From Escherichia coli (GTDB lineage Bacteria; Pseudomonadota; Gammaproteobacteria; Enterobacterales; Enterobacteriaceae): 64,000 nucleotides of DNA. The DNA is taken from the NCBI RefSeq assembly GCF_050320075.1, contig NZ_CP190021.1. The stretch is one strand, 5' to 3'. The position numbers and the translations under genes are program-made. This document shows, one piece after another, positions 3,751 to 64,000 of the stretch. The notes under the pieces are model-generated. The model was given only the letters and a program-made list of their open reading frames with translations, had not been told where the DNA came from and ran no database searches. The stretch's first letter is position 1; the number at the start of each line of letters is the position of its first letter.

Positions 3751-4211
3751 ACCAGGCATGTATATTTTACGCAGGGACACGCCGATCATGATCGTTTCAT
3801 ATCAGGGGTGGTCTGGAGGTCATGCGGCGTGTCCTCTGCACTCGCCGGAATAAGGAAGTCGCCGGCGGCTCCGCTTTTACCCGGCCATGCGGGGCATGGC
3901 CTTGTGGGGTTTCAGCTCTGTGGCCTCAGCGTCGTGTGCGGGCTGTGCCGTGCCTCCATCTTAGCCGGGCTGGCAGGGATGCAAGGGTACGCTTCGCCGC
4001 TGCGGTCACCCGGTCCCTCCTTCCCGTCTGCCGTGATTTTCCGGTCGTTCGTCCGCTCAGGTTTCGCGGCCTCACCCTGCAACTCCCGTCAGCCGTGTGC
4101 GTCAGGCTGCGGCTTCCCTTGCGCCCCTGCATCCCCGCCTTATCGCCCGGCTTTTATGGAGGCACGGCACCGCCCGGTGTCGCAGAACATGTGACTATGG
4201 AGGATTCGGGA

Positions 4212-4712
4212 ATGTCTGTTGTTGCACCTGCTGTATACGTTGGAACCTGGCACAAATACAACTGTGGAAGCATCGCCGGACGCTGGTTTGACCTGACCAC
4301 GTTTGATGATGAGCGCGACTTTTTCGCCGCCTGCCGTGCTCTTCACCAGGATGAAGCCGATCCTGAACTGATGTTTCAGGATTATGAGGGATTCCCGGGG
4401 AATATGGCCTCTGAATGCCATATCAACTGGGCCTGGGTTGAAGGCTTCCGCCTGGCACGGGATGAAGGCTGCGAAGAGGCTTATCGTCTCTGGGTGGAGG
4501 ATACCGGTGAGACGGATTTTGACACCTTCCGCGATGCCTGGTGGGGCGAGGCTGACAGTGAGGAGGCTTTTGCGGTTGAGTTCGCCAGTGATACCGGCCT
4601 GCTGGCTGACGTGCCGGAGACGGTGGCGCTCTATTTTGACTATGAGGCGTATGCGCGGGATTTATTCCTGGACTCCTTCACCTTTATTGACGGTCATGTG
4701 TTCCGTCGGTGA
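4212..4712 (+). CDS. ardA: antirestriction protein ArdA (166 aa, acidic DNA-mimic family)
   Basis: Start at ATG 4212 after GGAGGA RBS; sequence [36 protein letters not shown] and acidic composition match ArdA; the longer track ORF 3822-4712 is an Arg/Pro-rich artefact of the GC-rich leader. Confidence 0.85.
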
Positions 4713-5078
4713 TTTACTCCCCCGCTCCGGCGGGGGTATGGCCTGCCAGGCCGCCGGAAAACCCTGGCAGGCTTACGCCTGCCTGAAATGCAGGAGGGCC
4801 GCGCCTGCGGCGCTGCCCTTCCTGCCCGTCATGGTGTGAGGCATTTTTCTGTTATGTCGTTTCTGTTGTTCTGATTTCCGGAGGCGGGGACACCTTCGGC
4901 TCCCGGCTGCCTGGCGGCATCCGGTCGTCAGGCCCGACTCCGACAGGCAGCTGCTGGCGCACCCGCCAGTCTCCGCCGAACCCGCTGGCGCGGTTTCGGG
5001 CTGCCGCTACGGTCCGATGTCTGAAAAACCAGGCTTGCAGCGACCGTTCCGGTCGCGCCGCCCCTGTCGCGCCGGAAA

Positions 5079-5395
5079 CGGCGCTCCCTGCACACCTGAC
5101 GGTGTGTAAGGCCACTGCGCCTGATGGCGCAGTCAACCCTTCCGCCGCCACCCCTGCGGCCTGTTTCCCGCTGTGGACTTTCCGGGGGCTGGAGTAACCA
5201 CATCCCGTTTCAGCAGTCCAGGGGAAGATATACCGTCCACAAAATTTTTAGCCATAAACCCGGCAAAAAATTTTGCGTCCGCCCCCGGACAGCTGCCCCG
5301 TGACGTGGTGACGGACGCCCCATCGGAAAGGTCCACTGCGGGGAGAAACCCCGAAGAAGTGGACGGCAGAAGGGGCTTTCGCCCCTCCGGGGAGC
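5079..5395 (-). promoter_or_regulatory. conserved structured non-coding element, copy 1 (candidate single-strand promoter / ssi-type element of the transferred strand)
   Basis: About 320 bp that align at roughly 80 percent identity with 7957-8275; frameshifting indels between copies argue against coding; lies directly upstream of ORF 5441. Confidence 0.5.
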
Positions 5396-5440
5396 AACCG
5401 GTCGGCCCGGCGACCTGATTCAGCAGAAGGAGACGTTTTC

Positions 5441-5875
5441 ATGACAGTCAGCAGCACGATTTCCGTTTTTTGCCGCGACGGGGTGTTCCGTACCGTTTAC
5501 TGCCACCTGCACGGGGAGCCGACCTGGAACGGTCGCATCCTGCATACCCACTATGCCACCGGTCAGCAGGCCGAAGCCCTGGTTGAACACGGTGATATCC
5601 GTTGCCTCGGTCCCCGTTGCGACAAACCCGCCGGGCATACGCTTCAGAACCCGGTGGACGGTGTGACGGCTTATTACGGACGTGACAGTGGTTTCCGGAT
5701 GGACAGTGAGGCGCGTGAGTACCGTTCTTTCAGGGAGGCTATTGCCACTGAAAGCACTGAAGAGGTGCGCTTCCATTATGTGTTCATCGACGGCTACTGG
5801 AAGGTGATGTACCGCACGCCGGAAGGCTGGAAGATGAAAGCGCTCGCGCTGGCACTGCGTCGCTGTCCGAAATGA
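5441..5875 (+). CDS. hypothetical protein (144 aa), first gene downstream of conserved element copy 1
   Basis: ORF with AGGAGA RBS (aagGAGAcgttttcATG); Cys/His-containing, no recognisable family. Confidence 0.6.
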   Translation: MTVSSTISVFCRDGVFRTVYCHLHGEPTWNGRILHTHYATGQQAEALVEHGDIRCLGPRCDKPAGHTLQNPVDGVTAYYGRDSGFRMDSEAREYRSFREAIATESTEEVRFHYVFIDGYWKVMYRTPEGWKMKALALALRRCPK

Positions 5876-5968
5876 AAAAAAGGCAGGGCGATAAACCCTG
5901 CCTCTCTCCGCCGGCGCTTCCCCGCCAGGAAGTCCGGCATCTCAATCACTATCTATGGAGATTATGCC

Positions 5969-6235
5969 ATGAGACCATCAATTATCTTCGCAACCGCCGA
6001 GTATGTAAAGCGTCTGCGTGAAGAGTGCCTGCGGGAGAATAAACCCCTGCACCGCCATACCCGCTTCAGACGTCAGGAGCTGGCACAGGATGAGATTAAC
6101 CCGGACGTCCTGGCGATGAGCGGCCATATCGCCAGACGCTGCAGTGAGCAGAAGCGGGTGCGTATCCCCGCTATGAAAGTCAGCGAATGGGGCCACCTGC
6201 TCCGCGCGCTTGAAATTGAGCGGGTCTGCCACTGA
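5969..6235 (+). CDS. hypothetical small basic protein (88 aa)
   Basis: ORF with GGAG RBS 9 nt upstream; Arg-rich; co-oriented directly after ORF 5441. Confidence 0.45.
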   Translation: MRPSIIFATAEYVKRLREECLRENKPLHRHTRFRRQELAQDEINPDVLAMSGHIARRCSEQKRVRIPAMKVSEWGHLLRALEIERVCH

Positions 6236-6299
6236 TTAACCCTTGCCGTCTGCCTGTGCAGGCGGCAGGATACGTTCAGACATCTCACCAGGAGGAACC

Positions 6300-7238
6300 G
6301 TGAGTCAGAAGAAAACCACCACGACGCCCACGCCGCATGATGCCGCGTTCCGGTCGTTCCTGGCGAATCCCGACGTCGCCAGAGATTTTCTGGAACTGCA
6401 TCTTCCGGCGGAGTACCGGCAGTTGTGCGACCTGTCCACGCTGAAGCTGGAACCCGCCACCTTTGTTGAGCCGGACCTGCATCAGTACGCCAGCGATATC
6501 CTCTGGAGTGTGAAAACCACCGGGGGTGAAGATGGCTATGTTTATACGCTCATCGAGCACCAGAGCACCGAAAATCTGTACATGCCTTTCCGCATGTTAC
6601 GTTACAGTGTGGCGGCGATGCAGAGACATCTGGAGCAGCACAAAACGTTGCCACTGGTGATTCCTGTACTGTTCTATCATGGTGAGCGCAGCCCGTACCC
6701 GTACAGCATGAACTGGCTGGACTGTTTTGAGAATCCGGCACTTGCGGCTAAAATATACACAAAGCCGTTTCCGCTGGTTGATATCACTGTCGTTGATGAC
6801 AATGAAATCATGAACCATCGCCGGATGGCCGCACTGACGCTGCTGATGAAGCATATCCGCCATCGTGACATGATGGAGCTGCTGGACAAACTCCCGCAGG
6901 TCATGGTGGAAATTTCAGACGAGCAGGTGCGTGTTCTGATTCATTACATCGTTAACGCAGGGGACTCTGTATCACCGGAATTTATGCGGGCGCTGGCTGA
7001 GCGTCTGCCGCAGCATGAGGATAAACTGATGACTATCGCAGAACGTCTTGAGCAAAAAGGTCGCCAGGAGGGCAGGATGGAAGGACGCATGGAAGGACGC
7101 ATGGAAGGACGCATGGAAGGAGCGCTTGAAAAAGCCCTGGCTATTGCGTGCCAGCTTCAGAAAATGGGGATGACGCCGGAGCAGATTAAGCAGGCTACCG
7201 GACTTTCCGATGACGAACTGAAGAAAATCACTCACTGA
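6300..7238 (+). CDS. Rpn-family (YhgA-like, PD-(D/E)XK) recombination-promoting nuclease / putative transposase
   Basis: GTG start after AGGAGG RBS; N-terminal HDAAFRSFL..ARDFL and core motifs typical of Rpn/YhgA proteins; C-terminal tail domain after a GRME tandem repeat. Confidence 0.8.
   Translation: MSQKKTTTTPTPHDAAFRSFLANPDVARDFLELHLPAEYRQLCDLSTLKLEPATFVEPDLHQYASDILWSVKTTGGEDGYVYTLIEHQSTENLYMPFRMLRYSVAAMQRHLEQHKTLPLVIPVLFYHGERSPYPYSMNWLDCFENPALAAKIYTKPFPLVDITVVDDNEIMNHRRMAALTLLMKHIRHRDMMELLDKLPQVMVEISDEQVRVLIHYIVNAGDSVSPEFMRALAERLPQHEDKLMTIAERLEQKGRQEGRMEGRMEGRMEGRMEGALEKALAIACQLQKMGMTPEQIKQATGLSDDELKKITH
7071..7118 (+). repeat. in-frame 12-bp tandem repeat x4 (ggacgcatggaa) encoding (GRME)4 in the Rpn linker
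   Basis: Three perfect units plus one imperfect unit read directly from sequence. Confidence 0.9.
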
Positions 7239-7249
7239 GTAAACATCAC

Positions 7250-7276
7250 AGCCCGGCAAAATGCCGGGCTTTTTTG
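7250..7276 (+). terminator. Rho-independent terminator after the Rpn gene
   Basis: Hairpin agcccggc-aaaat-gccgggct followed by a T-run. Confidence 0.7.
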
Positions 7277-7299
7277 TCAGCAGGAGCAGAGCAAATAGC

Positions 7300-7458
7300 A
7301 TGACGATTGCAGAACGTCTTATTCAAAAAGGCGCACTTGAAGTGGCGCGGGAAATAGCCTGCCGGCTGCGGGATATGGGCTGGACGCCGGAACGGATTCA
7401 GGAGGCAACCGGACTTTCCGGTGAAGAACTGAAAAAGCTGTTTCCTGATGAGCAGTAG
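7300..7458 (+). CDS. free-standing Rpn C-terminal tail-like small protein (52 aa)
   Basis: MTIAERLIQKG..GWTPERIQEATGLSGEELKKL parallels the Rpn tail MTIAERLEQKG..GMTPEQIKQATGLSDDELKKI; GGAG RBS upstream. Confidence 0.6.
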   Translation: MTIAERLIQKGALEVAREIACRLRDMGWTPERIQEATGLSGEELKKLFPDEQ

Positions 7459-7488
7459 CCTGGCATTCAGCCAGGCTGTGAATCACGC

Positions 7489-7740
7489 TCACACATCCTC
7501 TGCCGTTTCCCCCAGTTCATTTTCCAGTCGCCTGATGATATCTGCCTTACGCATCCCCTGCATGTGAGGCAGCAGGTCACGGACTGAAAGTGCCTGGGTG
7601 GTCCTCCAGACGGTGACGTCCACCTGTTCCGCATTTTCCCAGGCGTGCCATGTTCTCTGCGTCACGCCAAATTCTCTGGCCGCTTTTTCGCGTGACCAGA
7701 GCATGCTTTTTCGCCAGATTCGCAGTTCCCAGCCGGTCAT
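7489..7740 (-). CDS. small HTH DNA-binding regulator (83 aa)
   Basis: HTH-like segment REKAAREFGVTQRTWHAWE; promoter region carries twin palindromes. Confidence 0.6.
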   Translation of the reverse strand: MTGWELRIWRKSMLWSREKAAREFGVTQRTWHAWENAEQVDVTVWRTTQALSVRDLLPHMQGMRKADIIRRLENELGETAEDV

Positions 7741-7754
7741 AAAACACCTTTGAA

Positions 7755-7775
7755 AAAGTGAAAAAACTTCACTTT
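7755..7775. promoter_or_regulatory. palindromic operator-like site AAAGTGAA-N5-TTCACTTT (copy 1)
   Basis: Perfect 8-5-8 inverted repeat just upstream of the HTH gene start. Confidence 0.6.
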
Positions 7776-7821
7776 ATTTTATCATCACAATTGCCAAATC
7801 AGCGCGATAAATAAGTGTAAA

Positions 7822-7842
7822 AAAGTGAAGAAATTTCACTTT
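7822..7842. promoter_or_regulatory. palindromic operator-like site AAAGTGAA-N5-TTCACTTT (copy 2)
   Basis: Second identical 8-5-8 inverted repeat 67 bp from copy 1. Confidence 0.6.
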
Positions 7843-7956
7843 TTTTGCTTGTAAATGTCGTGCGGTTTTCTCTGTTTTCACCTGTGCGGGAGTGGTGTGC
7901 CAGTGACCACCACATGCCATTGTTGTGCCGTCGTTTTTCTTCAGTCGCGCCGTATG

Positions 7957-8275
7957 CGGCGCTCCCTGCACACCTTACGGTGTGTAAGGCCACTGCGCCT
8001 GATGGCGCAGCTGTCTCTGCCTGTCTGCCGCCGCACTGCGGCCTGTTCTCCGCAGACGGACTTTCCGGGGGTACATACATGACCACATCCCGTTTCAGTC
8101 GTCCAGGGGGGAGATGTACCAGCCACAAAACTTTTTGCCGCAGGCGTCAAAAACTTTTGCGTCTGCCCCCGGACAACTGCCCCGTGACGTGGTGAGCGTC
8201 CCCCGTCGGAAAGGTCCACTGCGGGGAAATCCCCGAAGACCCGGACGGCAGAAGGAGCTTCGCTCCTCCGGGAAA
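7957..8275 (-). promoter_or_regulatory. conserved structured non-coding element, copy 2
   Basis: Homologous to 5079-5395; directly upstream of ORF 8317. Confidence 0.5.
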
Positions 8276-8316
8276 TGACCTGGCTGTCCCGGCAGTCGTG
8301 ACGATGAGGAGACAAT

Positions 8317-9168
8317 GTGATGAATCAGACTTTACCCACTGCTGACCTGAATACTGCCGGCACGACAGATGTTATTCCGTCTGTGGCTATCGACCGCATC
8401 ATCGCGCAGCGTAACGAAGGTATTGCACTGTTCATGCAGGCGATGGAATGCCTGGCGACAGCGCGCAAGATTCTGCTCGATGCGTCAGGTGATATTTTTC
8501 TTTACGGGTTTGAAGACTGCGTGACTGATTCCGTTCGTCGCATAGATAAACCGGAAGAAGCGAAAAGGAATATCACCCGTCTTGCCGACCGGAAAATCTG
8601 GGACCGCCTGATGACAGATACGGGCATGTACACCTTCATGAGTTCATGCCAGCGTGATGAGTGGAACAGCCAGCTGATGAGCGACACCTGTCCTGAAATC
8701 ACCCTGGACAATGTACTGGCAACATTCCGCCATCTGAATGCCTGCAAGATGCAGACATTTGAACAGGGACTGATTGATGTCTACCGGAAATTGTCATGGG
8801 ATTACAGAACCAATAATCCCTGCCGTCTGGGTAAGAAAATCATTATTGAAAACCTGCTGTACCGCTGGAGTAACGGGCGTGTGACGCTGGACTGCAGCGG
8901 ACGGGAGGCACTGGATGACCTGGTACGTCCGTTTTATCTGCTGGAGGGGCGCAACGTTCCTGACTTCAGGAACAGTATCGGGGCGCAGTATGGTGAATTT
9001 CTCGGGAACGGCGACAATGTCGGTAAGCTGTTAGAAGGGGAATATTTTACGGTGCGTGGCTACCAGAAAGGGACCGTACACATTGTCTTTAAGCGTTCTG
9101 ACCTTGTTGAAAAACTGAATGATATTATTGCACGGCATTATCCAGGTGCATTGCCGCCACGAGTCTGA
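8317..9168 (+). CDS. hypothetical protein (283 aa), last + strand gene of the leading region before oriT
   Basis: ORF with AGGAGA RBS; adjacent GTG and ATG candidate starts at 8317 and 8320; no confidently recognised domain. Confidence 0.6.
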   Translation: MMNQTLPTADLNTAGTTDVIPSVAIDRIIAQRNEGIALFMQAMECLATARKILLDASGDIFLYGFEDCVTDSVRRIDKPEEAKRNITRLADRKIWDRLMTDTGMYTFMSSCQRDEWNSQLMSDTCPEITLDNVLATFRHLNACKMQTFEQGLIDVYRKLSWDYRTNNPCRLGKKIIIENLLYRWSNGRVTLDCSGREALDDLVRPFYLLEGRNVPDFRNSIGAQYGEFLGNGDNVGKLLEGEYFTVRGYQKGTVHIVFKRSDLVEKLNDIIARHYPGALPPRV

Positions 9169-9180
9169 TTAAACAGAAAA

Positions 9181-9210
9181 GCCCTGGTATTTATGCCGGG
9201 GCTTTTTTTT
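9181..9210 (+). terminator. Rho-independent terminator after ORF 8317
   Basis: Hairpin gccctgg-tatttat-gccggggc followed by T8. Confidence 0.7.
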
Positions 9211-9253
9211 CTGTAATCATCATAATCTCAGAACACGATGTGACATTGTCACA

Positions 9254-9595
9254 TCAATTGTTGTTCATATCGATGCCATCTTTCCTGCCTGAATCTGTCT
9301 TTTTAGGTGCTGTTTTAGAGGAAGAACGGCGGGATGGTTTTTTCGATTCTGCTTCCCGAATAATGTCACGAAGTGCCTTCTCTCCTACTTCATACCCTGC
9401 ATTTTTGAGCGTGTCACGAACATCTGCCAGTGTATAACCCTTTGTCCTTACCAGGACAATAATGTCATCACGAATGGCATCAAGAAAATCACGCAATGTT
9501 TTCCGTTGAGCGGTGAGATCTGGCAATTCCGATAAAGCAGCTTTTGCCAGCTGGATGTCATCATCTGAGTAAAATTTTTTAGAAGCCATTGGCAC
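9254..9595 (-). CDS. hypothetical protein with Lys/Arg/Ser-rich basic C-terminal tail (113 aa), possible DNA-binding protein, directly beside oriT
   Basis: ORF on the opposite strand to the other leading-region genes; basic tail ESKKPSRRSSSKTAPKKTDSGRK. Confidence 0.5.
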   Translation of the reverse strand: MPMASKKFYSDDDIQLAKAALSELPDLTAQRKTLRDFLDAIRDDIIVLVRTKGYTLADVRDTLKNAGYEVGEKALRDIIREAESKKPSRRSSSKTAPKKTDSGRKDGIDMNNN

Positions 9596-9647
9596 TTTCT
9601 CTCCGTTTCATGTTGAAGTCTGATTTTATCATCAAAAACTGACTCCT

Positions 9648-9776
9648 GGCAGGGCTGCGCCCTGCCTCTGCCGTCTGCATAAGACTATGATGCACAAAAA
9701 TAACAGGCTATAATGGCCTGAAAAACGGGACAGGATGTGCAATTGTATAACCGCGCACGCGCGATTATACAATTGC
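9648..9776. promoter_or_regulatory. oriT: origin of transfer (oriT) with predicted nick site on the - strand
   Basis: Inverted repeat ggcagggc-tgc-gccctgcc (9648-9666); 12-bp inverted-repeat arms gcaattgtataa/ttatacaattgc (9739-9776); minus-strand core CATCCTG/TCCCG resembling IncP/IncI nick regions, placing the nick near 9730/9731. Confidence 0.7.
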
Positions 9777-9821
9777 CTCCTGGTCAGGGCTTCGCCCCGA
9801 CACCCCAGTAAGGAGCTGACC

Positions 9822-10154
9822 GTGAGTGATAAACGTCAAAGAAGTGGTAGTGAAAGACGGCAAAAGACGATCCTGAGAGCGGTCCGGTTCTCACCGGATG
9901 AGGATGAAACTATCTGTAAGAATGCTGAAGATTCCGGACTTACTGTATCTGCTTACATCCGAAATGCAGCACTGAATAAGCGAATTAACTCCCGTACAGA
10001 TGATGCTTTTCTGAAGGAGTTAATGAGACTGGGAAGGATGCAGAAGCATCTGTTTGTTCAGGGAAAAAGAACCGGTGACAAGGAATACGCAGAAGTGCTT
10101 GTTGCCATAACCGAACTTACAAATACATTGCGTAAACAGTTAATGGAAGGTTGA
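9822..10154 (+). CDS. nikA: relaxosome accessory protein NikA (ribbon-helix-helix, 110 aa)
   Basis: GTG start after AAGGAG RBS, next to oriT and upstream of the relaxase; expected size. Confidence 0.8.
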   Translation: MSDKRQRSGSERRQKTILRAVRFSPDEDETICKNAEDSGLTVSAYIRNAALNKRINSRTDDAFLKELMRLGRMQKHLFVQGKRTGDKEYAEVLVAITELTNTLRKQLMEG

Positions 10155-10164
10155 GGATTCTCCG

Positions 10165-12864
10165 GTGAATGCAGTCATTCCGAAAAAGAGAAGGGACGGC
10201 AAGTCTTCGTTCGAAGACCTGGTATCCTACGTCTCTGTCCGGGATGACATGACCGATGAGGAACTGGATTTATCTTCTTCTTCGCAGGCTGAACAACCGC
10301 ACCGAAGCCGTTTCAGTCGCCTTGTTGATTATGCGACACGTCTTCGAAATGAGTCATTCGTGGCGCTGGTTGATGTCATGAAGGACGGCTGCGAATGGGT
10401 CAACTTTTATGGTGTCACCTGCTTTCATAACTGTACTTCTCTTGAAACTGCCGCTGCAGATATGGAGTACATTGCCCGGCAGGCACACTATGCAAAAGAT
10501 GACACTGACCCTGTTTTTCACTACATCCTTTCCTGGCAGTCACATGAAAGCCCGCGTCCGGAACAGATTTATGACAGTGTACGTCATACGCTGAAATCAC
10601 TCGGCCTTGCCGACCATCAGTATGTCTCTGCCGTGCATACTGATACAGATAATCTGCACGTCCATGTGGCTGTTAACCGGGTACACCCTGAAACGGGTTA
10701 TCTGAACCGGTTATCATGGAGTCAGGAAAAACTCAGTCGTGCCTGCCGTGAGCTTGAACTGAAGCATGGTTTTGCTCCGGATAACGGTTGCTGGGTCCAT
10801 GCGCCGGGAAATCGTATCGTTCGCAAAACTGCCGTTGAACGTGATCGCCAGAACGCCTGGACACGCGGAAAAAAACAAACTTTTCGTGAGTATGTTGCGC
10901 AGACAGCGGTCGCTGGTTTACGCAGTGAACCTGTACATGACTGGTTATCCCTGCATCGTCGTCTTGCGGAAGATGGTCTGTACCTGTCTCAGATGGACGG
11001 AAAATTTCTGGTGATGGATGGCTGGGATCGCAACAGGGAAGGTGTACAGCTTGACTCGTTTGGTCCCTCCTGGTGTGCAGAAAAACTCATGAAAAAAATG
11101 GGTGACTACACGCCAGTGCCAAAAGACATTTTCAGCCAGGTGGAAGCACCAGGACGCTATAATCCGGACTTCATTGCAGCTGATGTTCGCCCGGAAAAAA
11201 TCGCTGAAACAGAAAGTCTGCAGCAGTATGCCTGTCGTCATCTTGGAGAACGTCTGCCGGAAATGGCACGGGAAGGACGGCTGGAAAACTGCCTGGCTAT
11301 TCACCGCACACTGGCTGAAGCGGGATTATGGATGCGTGTTCAGCATGGTCACCTGGTTATCTGTGACGGTTATGATCATAACCAGACTCCCGTTCGTGCT
11401 GACAGCGTATGGTCACTGCTGACGCTCGACAATGTGAATCAACTCGATGGTGGCTGGCAGCCTGTACCAACAGATATTTTCCGCCAGGTTACGCCAACAG
11501 AACGCTTCCGTGGTCGTCGTATGGAGAGCTGTCCTGCGACCGATAAAGAATGGCACCGTATGCGTACAGGTACGGGGCCGCAGGGGGCTATCAAACGCGA
11601 ACTGTTTTCTGACAAAGAAAGTCTGTGGGGATACAGCATCAGCCATTGTAGCCCTCAGATTGAAGAAATGATCACACAGGGTGAGTTTACCTGGCAGCGT
11701 TGTCATGAGTTGTTTGCACAACAGGGACTGATGCTACAGAAACAACATCACGGGCTTGTTGTCGTTGATGCTTTTAATCATGAGCAAACGCCGGTGAAAG
11801 CCAGCAGCATTCATCCTGATCTGACACTGGGGCGTGCGGAGCCACAGGCCGGACCTTTTGTGAGTGCTCCAGCAGATTTGTTTGACAGGGTGCAACCTGA
11901 AAATCGCTATAACCCGGAGCTGGCTGTCAGTGACAGGTACGGGGTCAGCAGTAAACGTGACCCAATGCTGCGCCGGCAGCGACGTGAAGCCAGGGCTGAG
12001 GCCCGTGCTGACCTGCGTGCCCGCTATCTGGCATGGCGTGAACAATGGCGTAAACCGGATCTGCGTTATGGGGAACGTTGTCGGGAAATTCATCAGGCAT
12101 GCCGTCTGCGGAAGTCACACATTCGTGCGCAGTACGATGATCCGGCATTACGTAAGCTGCATTATCACATTGCAGAAGTTCAGCGAATGCAGGCATTGAT
12201 CAGGCTGAAAGAAGACATCAGGGATGAGCGACAGAAACTTATTGCTGACGGGAAATGGTATCCACCCTCTTACCGTCAGTGGGTCGAAATTCAGGCTGCT
12301 CAGGGAGACAGGGCTGCTGTATCGCAGTTGAGAGGCTGGGATTATCGCGATCGCCGTAAAGACAAGTCACGCACAACGACGACAGACCGCTGTGTCGTGC
12401 TTTGTGAACCGGGCGGAACGCCGGTATACGGTAATACCGGTGATCTCGAGGCCCGTCTGCAGAAGAACGGGAGTGTTCGTTTCCGTGACCGTCGGACGGG
12501 AGAGTTTGTCTGTACGGATTATGGTGACAGAGTTGTTTTCCGTAATCACCATGACCGCAATGCGCTGGCAGATAAACTGGATTTGATTGCACCGGTATTA
12601 TTCGGGCGTGATCCACGCATGGGGTTTGAACCAGAAGGAAACGACAAACAATTTAACCAGGTCTTTGCTGAAATGGTTGCCTGGCATAATGTGACAGGCC
12701 GTACCGGTCACGAAGACTACAGGATTACGCGACCGGACGTGGATCATCACCGTGAAGGAAGTGAACGCTACTACCGCGATTATATCGCGGCGAACAGCAA
12801 CGATGACGCATCACTGCCTCCGCCGGAGCAGGATAAACGCTGGGAACCGCCTTCTCCAGGTTAA
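10165..12864 (+). CDS. nikB: conjugative relaxase NikB (899 aa)
   Basis: Relaxase histidine triad HTDTDNLHVHVAVN; size and position match the IncI1 relaxase. Confidence 0.9.
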   Translation: MNAVIPKKRRDGKSSFEDLVSYVSVRDDMTDEELDLSSSSQAEQPHRSRFSRLVDYATRLRNESFVALVDVMKDGCEWVNFYGVTCFHNCTSLETAAADMEYIARQAHYAKDDTDPVFHYILSWQSHESPRPEQIYDSVRHTLKSLGLADHQYVSAVHTDTDNLHVHVAVNRVHPETGYLNRLSWSQEKLSRACRELELKHGFAPDNGCWVHAPGNRIVRKTAVERDRQNAWTRGKKQTFREYVAQTAVAGLRSEPVHDWLSLHRRLAEDGLYLSQMDGKFLVMDGWDRNREGVQLDSFGPSWCAEKLMKKMGDYTPVPKDIFSQVEAPGRYNPDFIAADVRPEKIAETESLQQYACRHLGERLPEMAREGRLENCLAIHRTLAEAGLWMRVQHGHLVICDGYDHNQTPVRADSVWSLLTLDNVNQLDGGWQPVPTDIFRQVTPTERFRGRRMESCPATDKEWHRMRTGTGPQGAIKRELFSDKESLWGYSISHCSPQIEEMITQGEFTWQRCHELFAQQGLMLQKQHHGLVVVDAFNHEQTPVKASSIHPDLTLGRAEPQAGPFVSAPADLFDRVQPENRYNPELAVSDRYGVSSKRDPMLRRQRREARAEARADLRARYLAWREQWRKPDLRYGERCREIHQACRLRKSHIRAQYDDPALRKLHYHIAEVQRMQALIRLKEDIRDERQKLIADGKWYPPSYRQWVEIQAAQGDRAAVSQLRGWDYRDRRKDKSRTTTTDRCVVLCEPGGTPVYGNTGDLEARLQKNGSVRFRDRRTGEFVCTDYGDRVVFRNHHDRNALADKLDLIAPVLFGRDPRMGFEPEGNDKQFNQVFAEMVAWHNVTGRTGHEDYRITRPDVDHHREGSERYYRDYIAANSNDDASLPPPEQDKRWEPPSPG

Positions 12865-17482: not shown

Positions 17483-17770
17483 GACAAAGTCTCCATTTCT
17501 GGAATTTAAATCAAACGGAAAGGTTAAAAATTTATTTGCAGGCGATAAGAGCTAACCAGAGGAATTAGCCGTGTGATAAAAGGATTGTTGCAGATACGAA
17601 AGTCGTTAGAATAGCTGCGGGCGCTTGAGGCTGTATGCCGAAAGCGTTTTGTGGACGGTATACAGCAGAAAGCCCCTGGAGATTTTTTTATCAATCAACC
17701 AAGGGCTCTACTGTAATGCCTAGACAACATTATAGTAGCCCGATAACCGCCGTAAGGCAATGGAGGGGCT

Positions 17771-17926
17771 ATGATGCCACAGCGAACGTTTTTAATGATG
17801 TTAATCGTCATCTGTGTGACGATTCTGTGTTTTGTCTGGATGGTGAGGGATTCGCTTTGCGGACTCCGGCTCCAGCAGGGAAACACAGTGCTTGTGGCAA
17901 CGTTAGCCTACGAAGTTAAACGTTAA
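17771..17926 (+). CDS. pndA: Hok-family type I toxin PndA (51 aa), absent from the ORF track because it is under 60 aa
   Basis: Translation MMPQRTFLMMLIVICVTILCFVWMVRDSLCGLRLQQGNTVLVATLAYEVKR has the Hok/PndA architecture (transmembrane helix plus conserved Cys); GGAGG RBS; an overlapping upstream frame (17635-17919) fits a mok/pndC-like reading frame. Confidence 0.85.
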   Translation: MMPQRTFLMMLIVICVTILCFVWMVRDSLCGLRLQQGNTVLVATLAYEVKR

Positions 17927-17966: not shown

Positions 17967-18402
17967 CGAAGGCTGACCTCATTGCGCCCTTTCTTCTTCA
18001 ATGAAGCGTATCCGGTATTGTTTCATTTCCCCTGAAGCCGATTAGCTCCAGCCGAATGCCTTTGCCATCCGGGGCCACGTTCTGCATTTCGCAGATACCA
18101 CGTCGGGTCATGAGTGTGAAGGCTGTCATTGCCAGCATGGCTAACGCATTTTCCTCGCTTCCGCTGCGTTTCTCGAGAGCATCGGCAATTTATTCTATGC
18201 TCCCCACCTGAAAGCAAGAGTCGAATTCTTTACTCCACTTTTCTGACATCGGATTTTCTCTCTGTATTTATGGGTAGTTATCGAACTGAATGTGCCAGTT
18301 TTTTCAGGAGACGGCAAAGTTGAGATGGTTGGTTCTGATTCAAAGCATGAGTTTCCCCGGTGTGACGGGCATGTCGGGCGGATTTTGAGAAACAACAGAT
18401 GT

Positions 18403-18433
18403 AAAAAAACCGACTGGTGAGGTCGGTTTTTTT
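18403..18433. terminator. bidirectional Rho-independent terminator
   Basis: A-run, hairpin aaccgac-tggtgag-gtcggtt, then T7. Confidence 0.7.
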
Positions 18434-18457
18434 ACTGTTCCGTTACAGAGTGGGTGG

Positions 18458-18489
18458 CTCTGGTCGGAAAAGAACTGTCTATAACTGAC
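18458..18489 (+). repeat. 32-bp direct repeat, copy 1 (ctctggtcggaaaagaactgtctataactgac)
   Basis: Matches 18646-18677 at 31 of 32 positions. Confidence 0.9.
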
Positions 18490-46446: not shown

Positions 46447-46465
46447 CACCGACCGGATTGGCACG
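46447..46465 (-). repeat. shufflon sfx repeat 2
   Basis: reverse complement gtgccaatccggtcggtgg. Confidence 0.9.
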
Positions 46466-46472
46466 TAGGCCA

Positions 46473-46491
46473 GTGCCAATCCGGTACTTGG
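46473..46491 (+). repeat. shufflon sfx repeat 3
   Basis: gtgccaatccggtacttgg. Confidence 0.9.
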
Positions 46492-47307: not shown

Positions 47308-47326
47308 CCAGGTACCGGATTGGCAC
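47308..47326 (-). repeat. shufflon sfx repeat 5
   Basis: reverse complement gtgccaatccggtacctgg. Confidence 0.9.
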
Positions 47327-47334
47327 GTAGGCCA

Positions 47335-47353
47335 GTGCCAATCCGGTACGTGG
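47335..47353 (+). repeat. shufflon sfx repeat 6
   Basis: gtgccaatccggtacgtgg. Confidence 0.9.
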
Positions 47354-62892: not shown

Positions 62893-63230
62893 AGCAAAGG
62901 TCTCCGATGACAACTAAAAACGCTATCACCGAGTTCCTACGCTCATTGGTGATAGCCCAGACGGGGGTAGGAATACCGGCGTCATCGGAAACCGGCCAGG
63001 CTAATGCCTGCCCCGCCTGAGCTACCATAGATGACGACAAGAAATACAAGTTCCTGTCTTTATGGTATGGCAAAAAACGACGCCAAATGAAGAAATTAAC
63101 TTCTGCGCCGACGATGACTACGCGGGTTCCTACGCCCGATCACAGTTTTGCCTGTGACCAGTAAAGGGTACTTAGTATAACGCACCGAGTCAACTAACAG
63201 CTTAAAAAACATACAAAAAAGCGTCAAAAC

Positions 63231-63884: not shown

Positions 63885-63950
63885 AAGGAAAACCCCCACT
63901 ATCTTTCTTACGAACTTGGCGGAACGACGAAAGATAGTGGGGGCCTCACA
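63885..63950 (-). ncRNA. candidate antisense Inc RNA of an IncI/IncB-type replicon, complementary to the repZ-leader stem-loop I; rep genes would lie beyond the window end
   Basis: + strand stem cccccactatcttt / aaagatagtggggg (63893-63943) with a 23-nt loop containing TTGGCG, the recalled target-loop motif of ColIb-P9-type copy control. Confidence 0.4.
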
Positions 63951-64000
63951 GAATACGGGTAAAGTATAATGAAACCGTACCAGAGATTCAACCCTGTGCA

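Follow-up and report, generated by a model that had tools for sequence, protein, structure and literature searches.

The window analysed here (the whole stretch of DNA, 64,000 nt in length) is an IncI1 plasmid, and its region 4800-9800 is 100% identical to that of many IncI1-type plasmids, e.g. pSH1148_107. The leading-region genes annotated by RefSeq, i.e. ssb, a ParB-like gene, psiB, psiA, ardA, a 144-aa ORF, an 88-aa ORF, an Rpn-family gene and a DUF4942 gene, are all located on the + strand and run towards oriT. An oriT-like inverted repeat at about 9730-9775 is followed on its right by nikA and nikB (nikA/nikB and oriT together spanning 9730-12864), and the genes starting at 5441 and 8320 point towards this origin. 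The motif CATCCTG/T (the slash denotes the nick) occurs on the - strand at 9731/9730 and is what we take to be the nick-region motif common to IncP and IncI1 origins, for which a consensus was reportedly defined by Furuya and Komano in 1991. From this motif we infer a nick between 9731 and 9730, such that the - strand would be transferred, with the lower coordinates entering the recipient first, and such that + strand genes would be read from the incoming strand towards oriT. When nt 1 of the ColIb-P9 record AJ238399 is set to 9730, its interval 1459-1787 falls at 8272-7944, the exact blastn boundary of the repeat copy B described below; the transferred strand and the nick position are thus independently supported, because coordinates counted from oriT map exactly. 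An earlier note on this DNA, which had placed the oriT nick near 9730 on the - strand and had taken this strand as the template, is in agreement with both the motif and the coordinate mapping.

The features of the leading region are the following, in order of position.

3945-4170, - strand: predicted class 2 single-strand promoter hairpin upstream of ardA (ATG 4212); fold -67.3 kcal/mol, z -6.7
5060-5400, - strand (transferred strand): copy A of the repeat, assigned to ssi2, an IncI1 class 1 single-strand promoter, from its identity to ColIb-P9 and its fold
5069-5132, - strand: three short hairpins of copy A (5115-5132, 5091-5106 and 5069-5084), in a block that is 94% identical between the copies
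5137-5374, - strand: main imperfect hairpin of copy A in the minimum-energy structure
5371-5386, - strand: small hairpin of copy A, AGGGGCGAAAGCCCCT, between the main hairpin and the ribosome-binding site (consensus helix 2)
5441-5875, + strand: 144-aa ORF, the first gene downstream of ssi2 (ORF list and RefSeq)
5969-6235, + strand: 88-aa ORF, after the 144-aa ORF
6300-7238, + strand: Rpn-family gene, after the 88-aa ORF
7938-8280, - strand: copy B of the repeat, the copy nearest oriT, assigned to ssi1, an IncI1 class 1 single-strand promoter
7947-8010, - strand: three short hairpins of copy B (7993-8010, 7969-7984 and 7947-7962), from the conserved block and the fold
8024-8252, - strand: main imperfect hairpin of copy B, with the architecture of copy A
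8320-9168, + strand: DUF4942 gene (282 aa) downstream of ssi1; Pfam DUF4942, E 3e-50
9726-9739, - strand: putative oriT nick region, CACATCCTG/TCCCG, from the sequence and the IncP/IncI nick consensus

Additional repeats were observed between the two copies. The Rpn-family gene carries a 12-nt tandem repeat, ggaaggacgcat, in four units (about 7079-7126), and a 65-aa ORF that follows it (7261-7458) duplicates its C-terminal end (direct repeat 7117-7225 / 7328-7436, 75%). The interval 7741-7860, between a - strand helix-turn-helix gene (7489-7740) and copy B, is A/T-rich with repeated aaaagtgaa(g/a)aaa(c/t)ttcac inverted motifs, and contains a promoter-like site at 7758-7785 (+) and a weak, sub-threshold AgrB-like Rfam match at 7774-7848 (E 0.82). 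Elsewhere in the window, Rfam matches at gathering score were obtained for a sok-type antitoxin (antisense) RNA (17619-17776), an AgrB-type antisense RNA (18401-18488) adjoining a DinQ-like toxin gene of the RefSeq annotation, a C4 antisense RNA (62945-63032) and a repZ pseudoknot (63885-64000), which the end of the window truncates. At 46452-46491 and 47314-47353 a 40-nt sequence occurs twice; it forms an inverted repeat centred on GTGCCAATCCGGT and resembles the recombination sites of the IncI1 shufflon.

The repeat pair and its counterparts in other plasmids

The two copies, about 330 bp each, are in direct orientation. Local blastn of each copy against the window aligned 5066-5391 (copy A) with 7944-8272 (copy B) at 82.1% identity over 336 columns (E 2e-75), each copy being the single other match of its counterpart, and a profile built from both copies detected no third copy in the 64 kb window. 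The earlier note had estimated the identity of the two segments at about 80% and had judged the similarity not to be protein-coding, as indels shift the frame; both statements are corroborated, since the MAFFT alignment of copies A and B contains short indels (5, 2, 2, 1, 1 ... nt), many of which are not multiples of three and disrupt a shared reading frame. The conserved blocks quoted in that note are likewise present in this alignment, where the shared blocks lie at 5081-5132 / 7959-8010 and 5283-5311 / 8167-8195, while a repeat search returned best-conserved stretches of 67 nt at 94% and 60 nt at 87%. Furthermore, the copies do stop 40-50 bp before + strand genes, as had been claimed: 46 nt separate the end of copy A from ATG 5441, and about 45 nt separate that of copy B from ATG 8320, the RefSeq start of the DUF4942 gene (the ORF list starts this gene at GTG 8317).

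Comparison with published plasmids identified close counterparts for both copies. On the - strand, copy A is identical to ssi2 of ColIb-P9 at 325 of 326 positions (AJ238399.1:4353-4678) and copy B to ssi1 at 325 of 329 (AJ238399.1:1459-1787), while copy A matches the complete ColIb-P9 sequence (NC_002122.1) at 341/341. In pESBL-EA11, copy A is found at 341/341 ahead of the same 144-aa ORF (10166-10506 of the pESBL locus, L011, corresponding to window 5060-5400) and copy B at 339/343 ahead of the DUF4942 gene. The supplementary table of Samuel et al. 2024 gives three ColIb-P9 elements on the transferred strand, labelled Frpo1-3, which were equated with ssi1-3 (Bates et al. 1999) by their order from oriT. 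The literature confirms ssi3 as the ssb-proximal copy in ColIb-P9, and this third repeat is located upstream of ssb just past the left end of the window, beyond position 1 (L001 7917-8260). Judged by sequence, copy B is ssi1 and copy A is ssi2 of IncI1 plasmids. They share with ColIb-P9 ssi1-3 a sequence that is 98.8-100% identical, the same positions relative to oriT, the same downstream genes and the same predicted fold, and differ by 1-4 substitutions per copy and by essentially nothing else, with ssi3 just outside the window. The same arrangement was found in every IncI-complex plasmid examined, i.e. three copies, upstream of ssb, the 144-aa ORF and the DUF4942 gene, all co-oriented towards oriT.

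The repeat pair is accordingly a rediscovery of elements already known, whose description dates from 1999, with in vitro work following in 2004 and in vivo mapping in 2025. The in vitro work on the ColIb-P9 ssi elements is reportedly that of Nasim et al. in 2004. The description of the three ColIb-P9 repeats is that of Bates et al. 1999, who reportedly put them forward as promoters in the transferred strand. The earlier note had the type of element right; what it missed is that these elements are named and published.

Relatives of the repeat extend beyond the IncI complex. The IncI profile matches F (two copies), a Klebsiella IncFIA plasmid (three) and a Salmonella IncFII plasmid (two) over profile positions 77-343 with E 1e-18 to 1e-21, the pairwise alignment to F ssiD extending over only about 100-117 nt at 75%. 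The alignments to ColIb-P9 ssi and F Frpo that the earlier note had proposed as a check show the repeats to be homologous to both (325/326 and 325/329 for the former; E 1e-18 to 1e-20 for the profile against F). Frpo1 (ssiD) and Frpo2 of F were reportedly the subject of studies by Masai and Arai in 1997. The F elements (Couturier et al. 2023) resemble the IncI repeats in their apical module GTCCGGGG, a paired A/T tract, TTGYGG, an 8-10 nt bulge TNYATYT and CCCTGGAC, as well as in their position in the leading region and in the transferred strand being the template. Conversely, the F elements have a longer lower stem, lack the three-hairpin block and the GCGAAAGC/GCGAAGC motif of the IncI small hairpin (see below), and are followed by genes unlike those downstream of ssi1 and ssi2. 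Relatives of the repeat occur in >5000 plasmid records, and Samuel et al. 2024 report 13,089 Frpo homologues in 6,006 conjugative elements.

Fold of the transferred strand and its conservation

The earlier note had suggested folding the - strand of each copy in search of a long imperfect hairpin that rebuilds -35/-10 boxes, and the first part of this expectation stands: both copies form such a hairpin, and a stable one. As single-stranded DNA, the - strand of copy A folds at -104.6 kcal/mol (z -8.8) and its + strand at -92.9, while the corresponding values for copy B are -102.3 (z -8.0) and -86.4; the + strand is therefore weaker by 11.7 and 15.9 kcal/mol, respectively, and no shuffled sequence folds as well as the - strand of either copy. 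From 5' to 3' on the transferred strand, the element comprises a small hairpin, an imperfect hairpin of ~230 nt, a short side hairpin and three short hairpins. The apex of the main hairpin of copy A is a self-paired A/T tract (GCAAAATTTTTTGCC ... GGCTAAAAATTTTGTG), after which the 3' arm continues with TTGTGG, then with nine unpaired bases that form a bulge (GTATATCTT), and then with CCCC-T-GGAC, whose T also bulges out; the 3' arm of copy B carries the bulge GTACATCTC followed by CCCCC-T-GGAC. Between the two copies, identity is 90.6% in paired columns (192/212) and 60.9% in unpaired columns (84/138).

Covariation was assessed in 17 sequences, which were drawn from six IncI-complex plasmids (IncI1, I-gamma/K1, B/O, K2/Z) with three copies apiece, two copies identical to those of the window being omitted. 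The consensus structure contains 106 pairs, in which 99.1% of cells are paired as compared with 43-49% when the partners are slid by 1-3 columns, and changes that preserve pairing were found at 12 pairs against 1-4 in the slid controls, eight of the 12 lying in helices 3 and 5-8. None of 500 shuffles reached the covariation score. Between copies A and B alone, both sides of a pair changed in a compensatory manner in five cases, a single side changed to give a wobble in seven, and pairing was lost in three. Across the family, 112 cells hold G.T and four hold A.C, a count that is somewhat biased towards G.T since the structure was predicted on the - strand with G.U allowed. As an A.C opposition is a G.T pair on the other strand, this disparity and the energy gap together indicate that it is the - strand which is under selection. 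The predicted hairpin is thus specific to the transferred strand and conserved in evolution.

This asymmetry bears on whether the structure might act as RNA, be it as a folded leader at the 5' end of the mRNA or as a small RNA transcribed from the - strand. Any transcript spanning the repeat would recreate the hairpin, and part of the 5' arm is expected in the mRNA 5' leader. Such a role is nevertheless highly improbable, as selection on the - strand (112 G.T against 4 A.C; 12-16 kcal/mol) excludes the mRNA-sense strand as the main target and no promoter-like site for a - strand RNA was found. In Rfam, the repeats had no match at the gathering threshold in a search of the entire window, and relaxing the limit to E 1 for 3800-8400 brought up nothing relevant.

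The repeat copies are mosaics. Within the IncI complex, ssi1 of an IncK2/Z plasmid (L006 15381-15722) has an ssi3-like centre, and ssi2 of four plasmids (IncI-gamma/K1, B/O and K2/Z; L003-L006 near 12001-12343) has an ssi1-like apex. These mosaics point to gene conversion or recombination between repeats as their probable origin, and Venturini et al. 2013 (PMC3817090) describe a hybrid repeat that arose by recombination between two copies. On this basis the repeats could be regarded as serving in duplex DNA, whether as recombination substrates, as sites bound by proteins or as elements that separate leading-region operons by termination or insulation, and the three short hairpins, which would form also in RNA reading in from upstream, would be compatible with such a function. 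Little probability is attached to it here: the compensatory changes and the strand asymmetry argue that selection acts on a fold within one strand and not on a duplex sequence, the + strand lacks a terminator-like T run after the hairpins, and recombination between 330-bp repeats at 82% identity is to be expected as a by-product.

The outer parts of the element differ from the main hairpin in their conservation. Nowhere is the repeat better conserved than in the three-hairpin block, which, read on the transferred strand, lies 3' of the main hairpin at the far end of the element; the stems of this block are near-invariant in the 17 copies, such that covariation is uninformative. Its first 18-mer occurs exactly three times per locus in seven of seven IncI-complex loci, inside the ssi copies where mapped, and is absent from all IncF loci examined; the window holds two occurrences against 0.08 expected by chance. 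At the opposite end, the small hairpin of copy A encloses the motif d(GCGAAAGC) (5375-5382, -) and that of copy B is built on d(GCGAAGC) (8257-8263, -), both of which we take to be very stable DNA mini-hairpin motifs. The corresponding consensus helix 2 shows one GC<->AT compensatory change (alignment columns 20/29). Further instances of the mini-hairpin motif were noted inside the class 2 hairpin (3997) and beside oriT (9795), and the two strands of the window as a whole hold 3 and 5 occurrences of GCGAAGC; as about 3.9 would be expected by our own estimate for a 7-mer, the motif shows no enrichment. The promoter model presented below leaves the three-hairpin block unexplained. It is conceivable, if rather doubtful, that the block and the GCGAAAGC/GCGAAGC mini-hairpin together constitute a functional unit of their own that is not needed for the promoter; if so, this unit might serve second-strand enzymes as an entry or arrest point, or prevent SSB from melting the promoter hairpin in the manner of a clamp.

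Candidate promoter registers and related single-strand promoters

While the long hairpin was found, the canonical -35/-10 pair that the earlier note had expected within it is absent from linear scans. No sigma-70 consensus pair was detected by such a scan in either element on either strand, and no -35/-10 pair with at least 9/12 matches combined A at position 2 with T at position 6 of the second hexamer. Our own hexamer scoring of 12 family members gave best values of 7-8/12, with no position conserved in both IncI and IncF. The missing duplex match is in keeping with a promoter that is silent as duplex, and it also leaves the rebuilt boxes not obvious. The -35 and -10 bases are consequently inferred, and two registers appear possible, each scoring at most 7/12. 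In the first, the A5T4 tract would be UP-like, TTGTGG would serve as -35 and TGGACN, 16-17 nt further on, as -10; the -10 region would then contain the bulged T together with a T.T mismatch, and the start would lie close to an AAA/GGG internal loop. In the second, TGGACN would be the -35, with five of six -35 matches in ssi3 and Frpo2, and an irregular, partly unpaired stretch (an internal loop) 18 nt on would be the -10, so that the start would fall near a conserved two-base bulge of the template arm (about 5322 and 8205).

Two further placements were considered. A -10 inside the 9-nt bulge (TATATC, TACATC, TGCATC) was dropped, as no -35-like hexamer lies at a workable upstream spacing, and is also disfavoured by the variable second-position base (A, A, G, G and T in the different copies). 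Likewise rejected was a promoter located on the 5' arm and directed towards the loop, since the TTGAGA-17 nt-CATCAC of the F-type copies is without counterpart in the IncI copies.

The hairpin at 3945-4170 offers a useful comparison. Its counterpart ahead of ardA in pESBL-EA11 is 98.7% identical and the candidate 'Frpo' 4' of Samuel et al. from an insect metagenome 85.9% identical, and these matches identify it as the published class 2 single-strand promoter. Class 2 and 3 promoters (those of ardA, klcA and the M.EcoGIX gene in pESBL; ssp2/ssp3 or 'Frpo3' in F) follow the same principle of a hairpin in the transferred strand, yet they have no detectable sequence similarity to class 1, whose profile matches nothing else in the window. 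Furthermore, class 2 has a clear box pair at the stem base on the 3' arm, while none is visible in class 1; in the window this pair is CTTGCA-16 nt-TAAGAT, reading towards the stem base. It fixes the general geometry, with the non-template strand in the 3' arm and the base of the stem as the exit of the polymerase, although the register of class 1 is not fixed thereby. More distantly, filamentous-phage minus-strand origins and 6S RNA are folded single strands that sigma-70 RNA polymerase reads as promoters; they bear no sequence relation to the repeats, and they yield a primer or sequester the polymerase instead of driving protein genes downstream.

Class 2 elements are also where a different effect of such hairpins has been described. 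The part of a 2026 preprint used here reports a stalled 3' end at the base of the F class 2 promoter hairpin, deletion of which halves PsiB production. By analogy, the hairpins of ssi1 and ssi2 might also, or instead, stall complementary-strand synthesis and so keep the leading region single-stranded for longer, the more so as the class 1 hairpins of the window are even more stable and are each flanked by four extra small hairpins. The same part of the preprint, however, attributes the roadblock to the class 2 element and calls Frpo-type elements primer sources, and stalling is considered an improbable account of the repeats.

Expression in the recipient and the genes concerned

Taken as class 1 promoters, the repeats would act as follows. 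During conjugation the - strand, nicked at about 9730, would enter the recipient with its 5' end first, and before the complementary strand is made each repeat would fold upon itself into the imperfect hairpin of ~230 nt. The hairpin duplex would resemble a promoter and be engaged by the host sigma-70 RNA polymerase, which would read the transferred strand towards its 5' end, i.e. towards oriT. In this manner ssi1 would drive the DUF4942 gene, and ssi2 the 144-aa ORF and the genes that follow it. Second-strand synthesis would then turn each hairpin into an ordinary duplex without a good promoter, such that expression stops. The identity of the elements, their conserved strand-specific fold and the gene arrangement come from the present analysis, and transcription in the recipient and priming (see below) from the literature.

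Experimental data are available for near-identical sequences. The part of Wen et al. 2025 (PMC12672017) drawn on here reports RNA-seq of recipients of the IncI1 plasmid pESBL, in which six leading-region operons were induced up to ~500-fold 15 min after mating. The same part gives a large hairpin predicted upstream of each of the six operons and start sites determined by 5' RACE for all six single-strand promoters, three of which are equated with ssi1-3 and placed in class 1. As the pESBL-EA11 copies are identical or nearly so to those of the window, these RNA-seq and 5' RACE results apply directly to the window sequences. In the F plasmid, published deletion of Frpo1/2 abolishes downstream expression. 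The reading of the repeats as Frpo/ssi-type single-strand promoters, which the earlier note had put forward, is supported by the ColIb-P9 identity, the geometry, the strand-specific covarying fold and the published pESBL-EA11 data, and the two repeats are very probably the class 1 (Frpo-type) single-strand promoters ssi2 and ssi1, acting in the incoming strand during conjugation.

Transcripts from single-strand promoters are reported to prime second-strand synthesis too. It has accordingly to be considered whether the repeats mainly prime complementary-strand synthesis, which is the original sense of 'ssi': the hairpin RNA would stay as an RNA-DNA hybrid and be extended by DNA polymerase, gene expression being secondary. 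The 2026 preprint, in the part used here, describes rifampicin-sensitive early conversion at loci beside F Frpo-type promoters, as would be expected of priming. As the main role, priming is nonetheless unlikely, in view of the location of each copy directly upstream of a co-oriented gene with a ribosome-binding site, the strong induction of the downstream genes in recipients and the loss of expression upon Frpo deletion. The priming and promoter roles are compatible, so that priming is more aptly regarded as an additional function than as a competing explanation.

The genes downstream of the two promoters had been described in the earlier note as being of unknown function, and the searches bear this out, yielding only DUF4942 and uncharacterised families. 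The DUF4942 gene is the first + strand gene to enter the recipient; its 282-aa product matches PHROG families without an assigned role, one of which is labelled DNA methyltransferase, and has no relative in the PDB. For the 144-aa protein, searches of Pfam, NCBIfam and the PDB found nothing, and its only matches are to phage families without an assigned role (PHROG 1987). Both proteins are reasonable candidates for establishment or anti-defence factors.

For the window itself, the value of these results is one of annotation, in that the first two operons to enter each begin at one of the repeats; the element itself adds nothing new to the field. Single-strand promoters allow anti-defence and SOS-inhibiting genes to be expressed within minutes of entry, before the DNA is double-stranded, and through this early expression IncI1 and IncF resistance plasmids establish well in new hosts.
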